From: a virus
Lineage: Duplodnaviria; Heunggongvirae; Uroviricota; Caudoviricetes
IMG/VR virus record: IMGVR_UViG_2802429219_000008
Direction: 5' to 3' (one strand)
DNA length: 21,425 nucleotides
In this document: positions 5,456 through 9,039 of the stretch, piece after piece
How the letters are laid out: every line of letters starts with the position of its first letter
Position numbering within the stretch: position 1 is the stretch's first letter
The notes under the pieces: model-generated
Seen by the model: the letters and a program-made list of their open reading frames with translations, nothing else
The model's database searches: none
What the model was told of the DNA's origin: nothing
Position numbers and translations under genes: made by a program

Positions 5456-5863
5456 TTATCTTTTATTTGTCCGCTGACGGGCTTTTAGTAATTCTTCAAA
5501 GAGTTTATTGAAGTTTTTTACTCGAGCTCGCATTTCGGCGAGCTGGGTATCCTGTTCTGATTCTGGCAGTGCATTAAACAGCTCAAGGAGCTCTAGTTCT
5601 TTGGGAGATAAGGCAACTGGCTTCTCAACAGGTGGTGTTGGTTGCTTGTCTTCATCGCCAAATAGAATCCATGTTGGTGAGCATTGCAATACTTTGCTGA
5701 GGGCAAAAAGGTTCTTCCCTGTAGGTTCACTATCATCCCGTTCCCATTGTGATACAGACACATGGGAGATTTTCAGGGCTTTAGCAAGAGACCTTTGGGT
5801 GTGTTTGAGGTTTTTCCGACGATACCTAATGCGTTCGCCGATAGTTAAATTTTTTGTATCCAT
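5456..5863 (-). CDS. dicA: repressor DicA (cI/c2-like HTH_XRE repressor, 135 aa)
   Basis: ORF track 5456..5863(-): MDTKNLTIGERIRYRRKNLKHTQRSLAKALKISHVSVSQWERDDSEPTGKNLFALSKVLQCSPTWILFGDEDKQ..., recognised as DicA. Divergent from the cro-like dicC. Confidence 0.9.
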   Translation of the reverse strand: MDTKNLTIGERIRYRRKNLKHTQRSLAKALKISHVSVSQWERDDSEPTGKNLFALSKVLQCSPTWILFGDEDKQPTPPVEKPVALSPKELELLELFNALPESEQDTQLAEMRARVKNFNKLFEELLKARQRTNKR

Positions 5864-5946: not shown

Positions 5947-6177
5947 ATGCTTAAAACTGACGCTCTTTTGTATTTCGGTTCAAAAACAAAACTTGCACAA
6001 GCAGCTGGTATTCGTTTGGCTTCGCTTTATAGCTGGAAAGGGGATTTAGTTCCCGAAGGTCGCGCGATGCGTCTACAGGAGGCATCTGGCGGGGAGCTTC
6101 AGTATGACCCCAAAGTTTATGACGAATATCGTAAGACGAAGCGGGCGGGGCGGTTGAACAATGAAAATCACTCCTGA
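5947..6177 (+). CDS. dicC: Cro-like regulator DicC (76 aa)
   Basis: ORF track 5947..6177(+): MLKTDALLYFGSKTKLAQAAGIRLASLYSWKGDLVPEGRAMRLQEASGGELQYDPKVYDEYRKTKRAGRLNNENHS, recognised as DicC. AAGGTG Shine-Dalgarno. Confidence 0.9.
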   Translation: MLKTDALLYFGSKTKLAQAAGIRLASLYSWKGDLVPEGRAMRLQEASGGELQYDPKVYDEYRKTKRAGRLNNENHS

Positions 6178-6682
6178 ACAGGCTCGTGAGGCTCTGGATG
6201 CCTGGATATGTCGACCAGGAATGACACAGGAGCAGGCGACGATATTAATCACTGAAGCATTCTGGGCTTTGAAAGAGCGCCCGAACATCGATGTTAAGCG
6301 TGTCACAGATGAAGGTGGCGCGGTTGATCAGCGAGCGCTTGGCGTTAATCGAGTGAAGATATTCGAACGCTGGAAGGCTATCGACACTAGGGATAAGCGT
6401 GAAAAGTTCATGGCGCTAGTGCCTGCAATTATGGAGGCTATCCGGATTAATGATTTCAGGTTATATCGTGAAATTAGTGACGGAAAAAGCATCACGTATA
6501 TGATCGCCGGGTTAAACAAAGAATATGGCGATGTGGTGGAGTCCGGACTGCTTTTTGCTGATCCTGCCGTAGTGGATCGTGAAACTGACGAACTTATAGA
6601 AAAAGCAATTGCTTTCAAGCTTGCGTATCGACAGCAATACCAACAAAAAGCTGGATGGAATTATGAGTCTTCTTTTTGCTGA
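6161..6682 (+). CDS. YdaT-like protein at the cII position (173 aa)
   Basis: ORF track 6161..6682(+). ATG overlaps the dicC 3' end by 17 nt. Segment FERWKAIDTRDKREKFMALVPAIMEAI resembles the YdaT family as I recall it. Position matches cII/ydaT of lambdoid prophages. Confidence 0.5.
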   Translation: MKITPEQAREALDAWICRPGMTQEQATILITEAFWALKERPNIDVKRVTDEGGAVDQRALGVNRVKIFERWKAIDTRDKREKFMALVPAIMEAIRINDFRLYREISDGKSITYMIAGLNKEYGDVVESGLLFADPAVVDRETDELIEKAIAFKLAYRQQYQQKAGWNYESSFC

Positions 6683-7628
6683 ACGCCCACTGGTTATAAA
6701 CACGCAGCTGGCAATGAAAATCGGCTTAAACGAAGCCATTGTTTTGCAACAACTGCACTACTGGTTGAGAGATACCAACTCCGGTATGGAATGTGATGGT
6801 GTTCGCTGGATTTATAACACAACGGAACAATGGCTGGAACAGTTCCCATTCTGGTCAGAGTCAACGTTAAAGCGCGCGTTTGCAAGTCTGAAAACGCTGG
6901 GGCTTTTGCGTTGTGAAAAGCTCAATAAATCAAAGCGCGATATGACCAATTTCTACACGATCAACTATGGGAGCGAGCTTTTAGATGGTGGCAAATTGAA
7001 CGAATCCATCGGTTCAAAATGCGCCGCTCCATCAGGTCAAAATGACACGATGGAAGAGGTCAAAATGAAACGCTCCATTGGTTCAAAACGACCCAATGTC
7101 ATCGGGTCAAAATGGCCTGATGATCTTACAGAGAATACAACAGAGATTACTACAGAGAATAAAAACACTTTTCGTCCGGAAGCTTCGCAACCGGACCCGC
7201 AGACGACTGAACAGGATTTTTTAACCCGGAACCCCGACGCGGTTGTGTTTAGTGTGAAAAAACGCCAGTGGGGTAGCAGGGAGGATTTGGCGTGTGCGCA
7301 GTGGATTTGGGGGCGGATCGTGAACCTTTACGAACAGGCTGCCAGCGACGATGGAGAGATCATGCGACCAAAAGAGCCTAACTGGACAGCCTGGGCCAAT
7401 GACGTGCGCACAATGCGGATGCTGGATGGCAGAAGCCACAGACAAATTTGCGAAATGTTTGGTCGGGTACAGCGGGATCCATTCTGGGTAAAAAACATCA
7501 TGAGCCCGTCAAAACTCCGCGAAAAATGGGACGAACTGGTCATCCGCCTGGGACGTTCACCTGTACAACGTTGTGTGAATCATATTTCTGAACCGGATAC
7601 AGAAATTCCGCCTGGTTTCAGGGGATAA
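6663..7628 (+). CDS. phage replication initiation protein with DnaT-like C-terminal domain
   Basis: ORF track 6609..7628 (TTG start); the ATG at 6663 (MSLLFAERPLV...) is preferred because it begins just before the upstream gene's stop (6680-6682). C-terminus ...NHISEPDTEIPPGFRG parallels the DnaT C-terminus (...SEPDSQIPPGFRG). Iterons lie inside the gene. Confidence 0.7.
   Translation: MSLLFAERPLVINTQLAMKIGLNEAIVLQQLHYWLRDTNSGMECDGVRWIYNTTEQWLEQFPFWSESTLKRAFASLKTLGLLRCEKLNKSKRDMTNFYTINYGSELLDGGKLNESIGSKCAAPSGQNDTMEEVKMKRSIGSKRPNVIGSKWPDDLTENTTEITTENKNTFRPEASQPDPQTTEQDFLTRNPDAVVFSVKKRQWGSREDLACAQWIWGRIVNLYEQAASDDGEIMRPKEPNWTAWANDVRTMRMLDGRSHRQICEMFGRVQRDPFWVKNIMSPSKLREKWDELVIRLGRSPVQRCVNHISEPDTEIPPGFRG
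7005..7120. repeat. iteron array (putative origin of replication) inside the replication gene
   Basis: Five copies of GG(T)TCAAAA(T/C)G starting at about 7011, 7035, 7058, 7080 and 7104, i.e. 22-24 bp spacing, followed by an A-rich stretch with repeated acagaga. Reflected in the protein as repeated SIGSK/IGSK. Confidence 0.5.
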
Positions 7629-7668: not shown

Positions 7669-8085
7669 GTGGCAAAAGTTTTTACACAAGAAGAGCGGGA
7701 AAAAATTAAAGGGCAGGTGGTGGAACTCGTGCGCCAGAGCGGTCGTGAGACGCTACGGCAACTGGAAGCTAAAACAGGTGCGACAAGATATCTGATGAGC
7801 GTTCTTGCCAGAGAGCTGGTTGCCAGTGGCGATGTATATAACTCTGGCTACGGGTTATTCCCGTCTGAACAGGCACGTAAGGACTGGATAAAGGCCCGCA
7901 AAAAGATGTCGAAAGCAGCAGTGAAAAAAAAGAGCGACCCGGACCTGGTTTATTCATTACCAGACGGAGAAATACGCCGCTACGACAGGCGTCTGAACAT
8001 AATCTGTCGCGAGTGCCGGAAGAGCGAAGTTATGCAGCGTGTACTGGCGTTCTATCAGGGATATTTTCAGGAGGTGATGGAGTGA
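7669..8085 (+). CDS. hypothetical protein (138 aa)
   Basis: ORF track 7669..8085(+). GTG start with AGGGGGA upstream. Protein-like composition with a possible HTH (RETLRQLEAKTGATRYLMSVLARE). Confidence 0.5.
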   Translation: MAKVFTQEEREKIKGQVVELVRQSGRETLRQLEAKTGATRYLMSVLARELVASGDVYNSGYGLFPSEQARKDWIKARKKMSKAAVKKKSDPDLVYSLPDGEIRRYDRRLNIICRECRKSEVMQRVLAFYQGYFQEVME

Positions 8086-8387
8086 GGGTGAGAGTTTATA
8101 TTGCCGGTCCAATGACCGGGTATAAAAATTTCAACCGTGAGGCGTTTCACAAGGCGGAAGAGGAACTGAAACGGGAAGGGCATACCGTCTTAAGCCCGGC
8201 AGTACTTCCGGACGGACTGACACAGCCACACTACATGGATATTTGTATGGCAATGATTCGTTGTGTGGATGCGATTTACATGCTGAAAGGCTGGCAGCGG
8301 TCAGCAGGTGCTAAGGCAGAACTGGCACTGGCGGAGAAGCTGGGGCATGTGGTTATTTTCCAGGAGGCAACCAGTGAGCAAAATTAA
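8082..8387 (+). CDS. DUF4406-like (nucleoside 2-deoxyribosyltransferase-like fold) protein
   Basis: Frame of ORF 8013..8387. Proposed GTG start at 8082, eight nt after AGGAGG (8069-8074) and overlapping the upstream stop. VRVYIAGPMTGYKNFNREAFHKAEEELKREGHTVLSP matches the DUF4406 signature as I recall it. Confidence 0.55.
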   Translation: MRVRVYIAGPMTGYKNFNREAFHKAEEELKREGHTVLSPAVLPDGLTQPHYMDICMAMIRCVDAIYMLKGWQRSAGAKAELALAEKLGHVVIFQEATSEQN

Positions 8388-8700
8388 TTATCAGACGCTA
8401 TTGTTGACTTTGTCGAGAGTAAATTCGGGCAAGACAAGGATATGAAACCGGATAACGTATGTCATGGAGATGCTACTGAAATAATTAGCCATCATTGGGA
8501 GTATGGTTCGCACTACATGAATTAATAGGGGGGAGCTATACACGCAATGTGATGTGAATGTTAATTTGTTAGTGCTGCTTGTTGACCTTATGTTGGTTTT
8601 TGTGGTTGTTTGTAGGTGTCCTGCGATTGGTATTGTGTTTATTTTTTGTGGGGTGAAATGATGATGTATTGTTTTTCTTACTAAGAAATAAGGAATTATA

Positions 8701-9039
8701 ATGGGAATTATTGAAAAGATATTAGCGTTCCAGATAGATCACGATCTATTTTCTTCAGAAGAAGATAAAGTACTGGGTATTGCACGACTGGCTGTTGATA
8801 ATGGTTATAATCACTTAACAGACAGGCAAAAAAATGTGTTGGCGAGTCATTTAACCAAACGTTGTACGGGACATACAGATCTTGGAGGTCATCACAACGA
8901 TTGTAATAGAGAATTATCAGGCGAAAATTTATTAAATGCATACGAGCAATGCGATGATCCCGATGCCTTGCAATGTGAATCTTGCATAAGCGAAGCCTGT
9001 TACGAACGGCATGTGTGGGAGAAAAATTACTCAGACTGA
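8701..9039 (+). CDS. hypothetical Cys/His-rich protein (112 aa) in an AT-rich island
   Basis: ORF track 8701..9039(+). AAGGA Shine-Dalgarno (aataaggaattataATG). Preceded by ~300 bp of AT/GT-rich non-coding DNA. C-terminal half has clustered Cys/His (CTGHTDLGGHHNDC...CESCISEAC). No family recognised. Confidence 0.5.
   Translation: MGIIEKILAFQIDHDLFSSEEDKVLGIARLAVDNGYNHLTDRQKNVLASHLTKRCTGHTDLGGHHNDCNRELSGENLLNAYEQCDDPDALQCESCISEACYERHVWEKNYSD

Follow-up and report, generated by a model that had tools for sequence, protein, structure and literature searches.

Why does the gene for a replication initiator carry, at the centre of its coding sequence, a series of short direct repeats that are translated into odd peptides such as SIGSK? 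The question is raised by a viral DNA stretch of 21,425 bp (in the following, the window), for which an initial annotation had proposed an iteron array embedded in the replication gene in the manner of phage lambda. In our analysis, positions 6984-7196 very probably represent the vegetative (theta-type) origin of a lambdoid Escherichia coli prophage, located inside the linker-coding middle of its own initiator gene. This kind of arrangement is textbook knowledge; the version described here is unannotated and shares its DNA motifs with phages of very distant bacteria, and its newest part is a block of 12-mers. Keyword searches of the literature retrieved no experimental work on this allele or on the 12-mers, searches with the sequence strings ACAGAGAATAC, TACAGAGATTAC, GGTCAAAATG, and CAGAGACTAC gave unrelated primer matches only, and a search with the peptide string of the DnaT-like tail described below found nothing relevant.

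The gene in question extends from 6663 to 7628 on the plus strand and encodes 321 amino acids when translated from the ATG at 6663 (open reading frame list, PHROG 391); an in-frame TTG at 6609, upstream of this ATG, is a possible alternative start. The protein gives a full-length match to the PHROG 391 profile 'replication initiation O-like' (E 1.9e-92, residues 17-321 versus profile positions 11-298 of 298), and the identical coding sequence in phage PhiR42_1 is annotated as 'DNA replication protein O'. The gene is intact, and the allele is conserved in 1761 of 5426 complete E. coli genomes; in E. coli genomes, RefSeq labels the initiator 'hypothetical protein' and the origin carries no annotation. 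According to Pfam, PHROG, and the annotation of PhiR42_1, it is preceded by a cI/DicA-like repressor gene (5456-5863, minus strand), a Cro/DicC-like gene (5947-6177, plus strand), and a cII/YdaT-like gene (6161-6682, plus strand), the end of which overlaps the initiator start by 20 nt; early rightward transcription from this immunity region would traverse the origin. Downstream of the initiator, no gene for lambda P, DnaC, DnaB, or a helicase loader was found by Pfam, PHROG, or the PhiR42_1 annotation. The genes located 3' of it encode DUF977/LygF and DUF4406 proteins, unknowns, an HNH endonuclease, and Q, and the same order without a loader is present in PhiR42_1. The Q, lysis, and terminase genes in the window are intact.

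The N-terminal domain of the initiator (residues 1-107; 6663-6983, plus strand) is a predicted winged-helix domain, presumed to be responsible for iteron binding and oligomerisation. At the level of the predicted fold, from which DNA binding is presumed, it is closest to the winged helices of RepA_N plasmid initiators and of DnaD/DnaB N-domains. Pfam assigned no family to the window protein at E<=0.01, RepA_N and DnaD included, NCBIfam had no family for the N-domain, and a Pfam domain over this part was lacking in all 120 homologues listed from a large protein collection (one partial protein among them had an unrelated match to DUF4222). In lambda O, the N-terminal origin-binding domain corresponds to the Pfam family Phage_rep_O and the C-terminal part contacts P. 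No similarity of the N-domain to lambda O was detectable; BLASTP aligned only residues 147-294 of the window protein (7101-7544, plus strand), which are homologous to residues 135-270 of lambda O (34% identity over 148 residues, E 1e-27). In this alignment, IGSKWPDD, encoded by iteron 5 and beginning at residue 147, is paired with LGDCYPSK of lambda O, which begins at residue 135 and whose codons fall in the region of lambda iterons 3 and 4. The C-terminal 20 residues, (Q)RCVNHISEPDTEIPPGFRG (7566-7625, plus strand), match positions 160-179 of the 179 positions of NCBIfam NF002770 and share 14 of 20 residues with amino acids 160-179 of E. coli K-12 DnaT. This segment is a copy of the tail in which the host primosomal protein DnaT ends, a tail for which no function is known (PMC5778457).

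The repeats comprise codons 108-178 of the 321-codon gene and are located at the junction of N-domain and linker. The core motif GKTCAAAAYG has five exact matches in 21,425 bp (at 7012, 7035, 7058, 7081, and 7105), clustered within 7012-7114, compared with 0.38 expected per window from 100 dinucleotide shuffles, none of which gave five. The five near-identical elements of the initial annotation, noted at 7011, 7035, 7058, 7080, and 7104 with the leading G included, are thus confirmed, and the repeat finder suggested there as a check returned five copies with core spacings of 23, 23, 23, and 24 bp. When the whole window was scanned with a 15-mer consensus allowing up to three mismatches, the same five sites were obtained together with one three-mismatch site at 17099, which is a chance match; neither the core-motif nor the 15-mer scan revealed a second iteron cluster within the 21-kb window. 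The true repeat unit is not a 10-mer but a dyad-symmetric block of 23 bp, six of which abut at 6984-7122, so that the earlier count of five good repeats holds and has to be extended by a sixth, degenerate unit. The consensus, CATCGGGTCA-AAA-TGACCCGATG, is a near-perfect 10+3+10 palindrome with a central A-tract. The weak unit, iteron 0 (6984-7006, GATGGTGGCAAATTGAACGAATC), lies in the 23-bp register of the others; its counterpart is well formed (GAGGTCAAAGTGA) in mEp460_4F5 and in relatives from Klebsiella, Citrobacter, and Enterobacter. Iteron 0 is followed by the five good units, iteron 1 (7007-7029, CATCGGTTCAAAATGCGCCGCTC), iteron 2 (7030-7052, CATCAGGTCAAAATGACACGATG), iteron 3 (7053-7075, GAAGAGGTCAAAATGAAACGCTC), iteron 4 (7076-7098, CATTGGTTCAAAACGACCCAATG), and iteron 5 (7100-7122, CATCGGGTCAAAATGGCCTGATG), the arms being complementary at 8 of 10 positions in units 2, 4, and 5. 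With unit spacings of 23/23/23/23/24 bp, or roughly two turns of the helix, the array contains at least the four iterons of a lambda-type origin.

A GATC (Dam) site at 7122-7125, recognized from sequence and alignment, marks the point where the iterons meet the 12-mers and is present at this junction in most, not all, enterobacterial relatives. The following segment (7127-7168, plus strand) is composed of three tandem 12-mers, TACAGAGAATAC, AACAGAGATTAC, and TACAGAGAATAA, and an A-run, and represents a putative DNA-unwinding or helicase-entry element. The 12-mers follow the consensus (T/A)ACAGAGA(A/T)TAC and are in phase; ACAGAGAWTA matches three times (7128, 7140, and 7152), whereas 0.04 matches are expected. 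This is the A-rich region with repeated acagaga that had been noted before (GC 0.29, A 0.50), and no 40-mer of the gene is less stable than 7126-7165, which coincides with it (-44.3 kcal/mol; window mean -52.9, sd 4.4). An AT-rich region thus adjoins the array toward the 3' end of the gene, its unwinding being a prediction. On the 3' side of the 12-mers and the A-run, a conserved inverted repeat, GTCCGG-N11-CCGGAC, is located at 7174-7196, beyond the extent of 6990-7170 originally given; the whole region reaches from 6984 to about 7196. The arms of this repeat are 10-11 bp long in relatives (GTCCGGTTGC/GCAACCNGAC) and only 6 bp long in the window. Across 21 sequences, 86% of the cells are paired and three pairs are changed on both sides, and the score was reached by none of 500 shuffles; some compensatory change is therefore present, the repeat is weak in the window, and a flanking repeat of the lambda type is there.

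The similarity to the lambda origin is extensive. In both cases, the initiator gene harbours the origin at its junction of N-domain and linker and occupies the place after cro and cII in the early-right operon, the C-terminal protein halves are homologous, and the iterons show dyad symmetry around a central A-tract (lambda ATCCCTCAAAACGAGGGA, window GGGTCAAAATGACCC, the centre being TCAAAA(C/T)G in each). The order of iterons, an A-rich easily melted block, and an inverted repeat that starts with GTC and ends with GAC is likewise the same, and the lambda inverted repeat (GTCAGAGAATTC/GAATCCTCTGAC) has the same relative position as 7174-7196. The lambda O-gene arrangement claimed at the outset therefore applies to the order of the elements, the O-like gene, and the C-terminal half, but not to the N-domain, which is not lambda-O-like, nor to a P or loader gene, which is missing. 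In addition, the window has six abutting units of 23 bp with different arms instead of four of 18 bp, its AT-rich region consists of three 12-mers in exact phase, and its protein ends in the DnaT-like tail. In lambda, the O gene contains four iterons and an AT-rich unwinding region; for unwinding, the AT-rich region together with two iterons is sufficient, and the O protein binds the AT-rich DNA in single-stranded form (PMC6022878; PMC7466680). The O-like proteins of lambda, P22, and L are distantly related, each having its own in-gene iterons (PMC8022706).

Other known systems share parts of this design. The origins of the Stx phages 933W and P27 also contain six iterons, the distal ones being weaker (PMC7466680), and some Stx1/Stx2 phages carry an identical GATCTTACAGAGAATACAACAGAGATTAC block in the O gene; their O proteins, however, have other N-domains, iterons (CCCGAAA/GGGAAA type), and C-termini, and helicase genes follow them. 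In the genes of DnaD-like phage replisome organisers, namely those of SPP1 (G38P/oriL), 80-alpha (ORF20), and P22/L (gp18), in-gene origin repeats are followed by AT-rich DNA (PMC5499656; PMC8022706), but SPP1 G38P gave no BLASTP alignment with the window protein below E 1. The RepA_N initiator of plasmid pSK41 binds Rep boxes in the centre of its own gene, and the linker encoded by the origin is dispensable for the protein (PMC5703833). Unlike the RepA_N initiators (pSK41 Rep; structure 4PTA), the window protein lacks a RepA_N Pfam match at E<=0.01, and pSK41 differs further in being a Gram-positive plasmid whose Rep C-terminal domain binds DnaG and whose copy number is controlled by an antisense RNA. 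Staphylococcal DnaD-like initiators, such as that of the Staphylococcus aureus phage fPfSau02, are true homologues of the N-domain (52% identity), and the sequence of their iterons is essentially the same. In the Gram-positive relatives, unlike in the window, loader and helicase genes follow the initiator gene.

Absence of the repeats from homologous replication genes would have spoken against an origin, and the opposite was found. Of 17 phage homologues of the N-domain, collected by protein search alone, all have an iteron array in the corresponding position, which in 16 of them is followed by a CAGA(G/T)A block with a 10-12-nt period. The same layout occurs in bacterial genomes, including those of Bacillus and Moraxella, and the position of the array is kept in every N-domain homologue examined, from phages of enterobacteria, Staphylococcus, Bacillus, Listeria, Vibrio, and Flavobacterium. 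The arms of the iterons vary from one N-domain subfamily to another, and the proportion of pairs sharing iteron 9-mers rises from 8% to 99% as the N-domains become more alike; at low identity, iteron regions and N-domain coding DNA are not cleanly separated by this measure, since conserved protein motifs share 9-mers, too. The 12-mer block has a wider distribution and is common to many other initiator genes, CAGAGA..TAC at a 10-12-nt phase being found in phages of Staphylococcus, Bacillus, Listeria, Escherichia, Pseudomonas, Acinetobacter, and Burkholderia. It sits exactly where a single N-domain superfamily meets C-terminal regions of 17 unrelated clusters. The underlying exact-pattern scan of viral contigs specified 15 bases, for which some chance matches are expected, and about 9 of 80 loci judged to be chance or unrelated, including a tandem repeat of a giant virus, were left out. 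Taken together, the data show an apparently single iteron specificity (GGTCAAAATGACC) and a single 12-mer grammar retained all the way from prophages of E. coli to phages of S. aureus, with the C-terminal partner exchanged in 17 ways.

Among the alternatives, the one that survives best concerns the 12-mer block only, which might be a generic AT-rich spacer or a recombination joint at which origin-specific N-terminal and host- or loader-specific C-terminal modules are shuffled among phages; we regard this as possible, if rather unlikely. Its location exactly at the junction of one N-domain superfamily with 17 unrelated C-terminal clusters is what a joint would lead one to expect, the lambda record marks recombination junctions just past the AT-rich region, and the lambda version at the same place is A-rich and degenerate. 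Moreover, exchange of the lambda AT-rich region leaves iteron binding by O unaffected (PMC7466680), and oriL of SPP1, the best-studied in-gene origin of the Firmicutes, functions and has no such 12-mers, so that oriL cannot link them to a demonstrated unwinding site. A mere spacer, however, would not hold CAGAGA..TAC at a 10-12-nt phase from Firmicute to proteobacterial phages when the flanking coding DNA is only about 56% identical in the one pair measured (window versus fPfSau02), and a joint would account for common sequences in phages able to encounter each other, hardly for those common to different phyla. As a tentative counter-proposal, and one to be taken as a whole, the 12-mers could be a sequence-specific origin element used superfamily-wide, while the DnaT tail of 'solo' initiators hijacks host DnaB-DnaC loading. 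The element, in the form (T/A)ACAGAGA(N)TAC, would more generally consist of two to four CAGA(G/T)A units at a 10-12-nt phase directly 3' of the iterons and would specify more than AT-richness; the superfamily would be that of the winged-helix phage initiators of Proteobacteria, Firmicutes, and Bacteroidota, irrespective of iteron specificity and C-terminal partner. By analogy with the DnaA-trios beside DnaA boxes, a site for single-strand binding or for helicase or primase entry could be its role.

A second alternative accepts the iterons as protein-binding sites and denies that the region fires: they could be sites of the initiator or another protein for regulation (autoregulation, titration, handcuffing, or exclusion of related phages) or an origin left behind in a defective prophage, replication then starting elsewhere or being absent. 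Iterons of plasmids also work in copy control, the E. coli prophages with immunity of the DicA/DicC type include many cryptic ones, and the prophage studied here could be defective; firing is not proven by sequence alone. Furthermore, ectopic copies of the lambda origin reportedly inhibit homologous phages (PMC4488673, PMC3349717). We nevertheless consider this alternative improbable. The three-part series of iterons, least stable block, and inverted repeat is present without indels, as the same allele, in the functional, plaque-forming phages PhiR42_1, mEp460, and HannyBb, a second iteron cluster is missing from the 21-kb window, and the Q, lysis, and terminase genes are intact.

Least probable is a tandem repeat at the protein level, in which a flexible linker peptide (SIGSK..., TENTTEITTEN) would be the selected entity and the DNA would have no role. 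The region does encode an inter-domain linker, and across diverse genes the 12-mers are read in a T-E-x-T frame in 169 of 176 units, because of which some peptide-level constraint on the 12-mer block is possible. Codon choice in T-E-x-T units outside the search pattern also gave no signal (GAG 12 and GAA 15 versus a background of 471 and 622), in a small sample that is biased to diverged units. On the other hand, the iteron units 0-5 are translated in frames 0, 2, 1, 0, 2, and 2 and thereby yield three unrelated peptides: units 1, 4, and 5 share one frame and give SIGSK or VIGSK, as the initial annotation had supposed in explaining the SIGSK repeat, whereas units 2 and 3 give SGQN and EEVKM. 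In a comparison of 10 enterobacterial homologues, amino acid identity was lower in the iteron segment than in the N-domain (0.69 versus 0.85), yet nucleotide identity was higher (0.84 versus 0.79), and the fraction of identical codons was 0.895 in the iterons and 0.98 in the 12-mers versus 0.545 in the N-domain, with no indels across about 180 bp. A stretch of 23 nt (7046-7068) is identical in fPfSau02 and is translated there in another reading frame, the N-domain DNA of the two being only 56% identical. In Firmicute phages, spacings of 10 or 11 nt shift the CAGAGA units to other frames (TRDY, QRI), CAGAGA stays although changes at the first codon base yield T, P, A, or S, and the origin-encoded linker peptide of pSK41 is dispensable, as mentioned above. 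The occurrence of iterons in three frames, the frozen synonymous sites, and the identity to fPfSau02 in another frame thus argue that the repeats are selected as DNA and not as peptide; the odd peptide repeats (SIGSK, VIGSK, TENT, and TEIT) are by-products, since the DNA elements cannot escape translation. A centromere was also considered and, like the regulatory and peptide readings, ranked low.

If 6984-7196 is the origin, initiation could proceed in the following way, the steps of which we infer from homology and from the anatomy of the locus. Early rightward transcription from a promoter on the cro side would express the initiator and run through the origin. Dimers of the N-terminal winged-helix domain (residues 1 to about 107) would bind the 23-bp iterons, and the abutting 23-bp phasing together with the central A-tracts would allow the array to bend or wrap into an O-some-like complex. 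Both origin activity and iteron binding by the initiator are deduced from the sequence, and the freezing of synonymous sites and the co-variation of iterons and N-domain lend indirect support to the binding. The resulting stress would melt the adjacent 12-mers and the A-run (7127-7168), the least stable segment, which the initiator may also keep as single strands, and the inverted repeat at 7174-7196 would bound the unwinding element as in the lambda origin. Finally, the lambda-O-like C-terminal half and the DnaT-like tail might recruit host DnaB-DnaC, either directly or via restart proteins. Recruitment of the host proteins is proposed because the phage lacks P, DnaC, and DnaB of its own; a partner gene for a helicase loader is missing as well.

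Recognition of the origin would permit correct annotation of the allele in the 1761 E. coli genomes that have it, and it carries a warning in that a 'synonymous' recoding of the initiator gene would kill the phage. The origin would also be a starting point for interference directed at it, or for replicons derived from the prophage. The family as a whole provides a natural system for studying how winged-helix initiators read iterons and what, beyond AT content, defines an unwinding or helicase-entry site, and the copied DnaT tail is a testable clue to how DnaT hands over to DnaB-DnaC.

The repeats at 6984-7196 very probably constitute the replication origin of the prophage, bound by its own gene product; from the sequence we infer that they support binding, unwinding, and firing. 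They occupy codons 108-178 of a 321-codon open reading frame (6663-7628, + strand), which belongs to PHROG 391 ('replication initiation O-like'; end-to-end match, E 1.9e-92) and, at the sequence level, to neither the lambda O N-domain family nor Pfam RepA_N/DnaD. Its DNA is 96-98% identical to genes in phages PhiR42_1, HannyBb, and mEp460, annotated as 'DNA replication protein O', 'replication initiation O-like', or 'Primosomal protein I', and 1761 of 5426 complete E. coli genomes carry the gene over at least 80% of its length, labelled in RefSeq only as 'hypothetical protein'. A cI/DicA-like repressor gene (5456-5863, - strand), a Cro/DicC-like gene, and a cII/YdaT-like gene precede it, and a RecE-like exonuclease, a Q antiterminator, an endolysin, Rz, and a small terminase are encoded further along the window, which together mark the context, by predicted gene content, as that of a lambdoid prophage. 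The gene directly upstream is designated 'toxin YdaT family protein' in RefSeq, yet occupies the cII position; the candidate ATG of the initiator gene overlaps its end by 20 nt (6663-6682), with an in-frame TTG upstream at 6609, and translational coupling from the cII/YdaT-like gene to the initiator gene is likely. A 129-aa open reading frame at 396-785 matches integrase only in part (PHROG 1, profile positions 121-203 of 611) and may be an integrase fragment, hinting at a rearranged prophage end.

The core GKTCAAAAYG is present five times in the 21.4-kb window (7012, 7035, 7058, 7081, and 7105) versus 0.38 copies expected from dinucleotide shuffles, none of which reached five. A whole-window scan with the 15-mer iteron consensus, allowing up to three mismatches, returned the same five sites and one chance-level site elsewhere. 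A repeat finder, the check proposed in the initial annotation, returned five in-register copies spaced by 23, 23, 23, and 24 bp, and also a ACAGAGAATA(C/A)A repeat pair with 24 bp between the copies. The five iterons at 22-24-bp spacing described initially are therefore confirmed, but the unit had to be redefined: once set in register, the iterons are abutting 23-bp blocks (6984-7122), and a sixth, degenerate unit (iteron 0, 6984-7006), of which relatives have a good copy, lies in register upstream of the others. The consensus of units 1-5, CATCGGGTCA-AAA-TGACCCGATG, is a near-perfect palindrome, and the 10-nt arms of units 2, 4, and 5 are complementary at 8 of 10 positions.

Iteron 5 and a GATC (Dam) site (7122-7125) are directly followed by three 12-mers in exact phase, TACAGAGAATAC, AACAGAGATTAC, and TACAGAGAATAA, and by AAACAC (block 7127-7168), the GATC sitting exactly at the boundary of the two repeat types. 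ACAGAGAWTA occurs three times in the window at 12-bp spacing (0.04 expected) and the coding strand of 7126-7165 is 50% A, in agreement with the A-rich region with repeated acagaga noted initially. This segment (GC 0.29) is the least stable 40-mer of the gene, with a nearest-neighbour energy of -44.3 kcal/mol versus a window mean of -52.9 (sd 4.4). The GATC is kept in most enterobacterial relatives and absent in two of the loci fetched for comparison (L093 and L095); Firmicute relatives lack it and have a conserved CAATACC lead-in instead. An inverted repeat, GTCCGG-N11-CCGGAC (7174-7196), is located 10-15 nt beyond the least stable segment. In relatives its arms measure 10-11 bp (GTCCGGTTGC/GCAACCNGAC, GGTTTC/GAAACC, GGTTCC/GGAACC), and in 21 sequences 86% of the cells pair and three pairs have changed on both sides, a covariation reached by no shuffle. 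The same order of elements is found in lambda, where four iterons and a 39-bp 'high-AT' region sensitive to unwinding are followed by GTCAGAGAATTC/GAATCCTCTGAC. Three relatives (L132, L133, and L135) carry the 12-mers and then a lambda-like TCGTCGCAGAATTCT...GCGAC repeat, which by sequence comparison puts the 12-mer block where lambda has its AT-rich region. With an O-like gene, iterons, a least stable block, and an inverted repeat, the lambda O arrangement originally proposed, in which the origin lies inside the initiator gene, holds in kind.

The six iteron units are read in frames 0, 2, 1, 0, 2, and 2, and a single DNA motif encodes SIGSK/VIGSK, SGQN, or EEVKM depending on the frame, which, as had been suggested, accounts for the odd SIGSK repeat in the protein. 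Comparative evidence identifies the repeats as selected as DNA and not as peptide. Ten enterobacterial homologues were aligned by codon; identity between their N-domains is 74-100%, and 68-100% when all loci fetched are counted. Protein identity in this alignment is 0.69 in the iteron segment versus 0.85 in the N-domain, and DNA identity is 0.84 versus 0.79. Where the amino acid is the same, so is the codon in 89.5% of cases in the iterons and 98% in the 12-mers; the corresponding figures are 54.5% for the N-domain and 48% for the C-domain. The ten homologues have zero indels across the whole element, the next linker having indels. The DnaD-like initiator gene of S. aureus phage fPfSau02, with 52% protein and 56% DNA identity to the N-domain of the window, carries the same iterons, and a 23-nt exact identity inside both initiator genes (L235:1261-1283 and window 7046-7068) is read in different frames. 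The two phages have one iteron specificity (AGGTCAAAATGACC) across phyla.

The initial annotation had regarded the absence of repeats from homologous replication genes as evidence against an origin. Among homologues gathered by protein similarity to the N-domain only, an iteron array (arm-CAAAAT/CAAATT-arm') was present just after the N-domain in all 17 phages fetched, the hosts being Erwinia, Pseudomonas, Klebsiella, Hafnia, Staphylococcus (three), Bacillus (three), Listeria, Stenotrophomonas, Vibrio (two), Flavobacterium, Burkholderia, and Lactobacillus, and also in genome loci of Citrobacter, Raoultella, Enterobacter, Izhakiella, Trabulsiella, Morganella, Moraxella, and Bacillus. The origin reading is not refuted by this comparison. 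The iteron arms vary between subfamilies (e.g. GAGGGCAATTTGCCCTC, CGTATCAAAATGATACG, GACCCAAATTGGGTC, ATTCGCCGAATTCGGCGAAT), and a common iteron 9-mer is found in 8% of locus pairs below 35% N-domain identity and in 99% of those at 65-80%, an increase expected if the N-domain reads the iteron arms. In three Deferribacterales and Proteobacteria MAG contigs (L107, L108, and L109), the N-domain homology leads directly into a second copy of the N-domain motif (…LNEAIFLQQLHYWL…) in place of iterons, which points to a tandem duplication of the winged-helix domain or to two paralogous genes side by side. In Bacillus sp. V5-8f (L106), an apparent in-frame stop is located in the iteron region (…GGGTCAGTAACAATTC…) and the 12-mers are degenerate (CCATAGATTACTACATAGAATAC); this initiator may be a decaying prophage gene.

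An identical GATCTTACAGAGAATACAACAGAGATTAC block follows the iterons in the O genes of many Stx1/Stx2 phages, e.g. L004:1990-2060 (Stx1a phage Stx1_14040), whose N-domain, iterons (CCCGAAA/GGGAAA type), and C-terminus are unrelated to those of the window gene. An exact scan of IMG/VR for CAGAGANTACNNCAGAGA yielded at least 80 loci; among the 80 fetched, the block lies at aa 115-313 (most 130-190) of a 241-484-aa open reading frame in 61, right after an iteron array whose sequence is one of many, the remainder being about nine chance matches and truncated loci. Single linkage among the loci fetched gave three clusters of N-parts (53 including the window, 8, and 1), the cluster of 8 of which we infer from its iteron sequences to be lambda-O-like, and 17 clusters of C-parts. 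BLASTN of window 7121-7168 against GenBank phages gave 104 records (Acinetobacter 21, Staphylococcus 17, Bacillus 15, Klebsiella 12, Stx-converting phages 18; further hosts are Pseudomonas, Erwinia, Burkholderia, Vibrio, and Lactobacillus), and nearly all annotated records listed have the hit covered by a gene called replication initiation, O-like, DnaD-like, or primosomal protein I. Within the unbiased sample of N-domain homologues, a CAGA(G/T)A block with a 10-12-nt period follows the iterons in 16 of 17 phages; SPP1 oriL was checked and has none. The block is possibly a pure 'module-junction linker' or explained partly at the peptide level, and its units are read as T-E-x-T in 169 of 176. 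In Firmicute phages, 10/11-nt spacings shift the units to other frames (TRDY, QRI, NQI), and changes in the first codon base yield T, P, A, or S with CAGAGA kept, which favours a role of the block at the DNA level, as a site of unwinding or entry. The initiator may bind the separated strands of the block; lambda O binds AT-rich single-stranded DNA, and the minimal unwinding unit of lambda consists of two iterons and the AT-rich region (PMC7466680).

Unlike in lambda, no P, DnaC, or DnaB gene is present among the next genes after the initiator gene. These are a DUF977/LygF 'Ren-like' gene (7669-8085), a DUF4406 nucleoside-2-deoxyribosyltransferase-like gene overlapping it (8013-8387), unknowns, an HNH endonuclease gene, and Q, the stretch free of helicase and loader genes being 7669-9039. 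This layout corresponds to the 'initiator-solo' replication module, a term reportedly used by Weigel and Seitz. Relatives with other C-termini have a loader and a helicase downstream (Staphylococcus and Bacillus phages), a primase-helicase (Pseudomonas AF and Flavobacterium relatives), or a DnaC-like loader (BcepMigl and phiLdb), a pairing of different C-termini with different partner types from which the variable C-terminus is seen to match the partner gene. The last 20 aa of the initiator, (Q)RCVNHISEPDTEIPPGFRG (window 7566-7625), are identical in 14 of 20 positions to the C-terminal tail of E. coli DnaT (aa 160-179), which explains the RAST name 'Primosomal protein I'; other alleles end with IPAGFRG or VPAGFRS or with a different tail, GGHWNSPEAWENTL. 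The means by which DnaT recruits DnaB-DnaC is not known (PMC5778457). A copy of the DnaT tail would plug the phage initiator into the host DnaT to DnaB-DnaC pathway, and the tail is possibly, as a speculation, a mimicry recruiting DnaB-DnaC.

The arrangement in the window also matches that of RepA_N plasmids, in which the N-terminal domain binds Rep boxes located centrally inside rep; their initiator has a host-specific C-terminal domain and can do without the linker encoded by ori (PMC5703833). In-gene origins resembling the arrangement in the window are also found in SPP1, 80-alpha, P22, and L. The searchable literature yielded nothing on DnaT-tail mimicry and no description of the 12-mer block, where absence is no proof that none exists. 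The iteron array is a real feature and, with the probable origin, an uncharacterised and largely unannotated member of the known lambda-type arrangement, in which the 12-mer grammar shared across phyla and the mimicry of the DnaT tail might be new.
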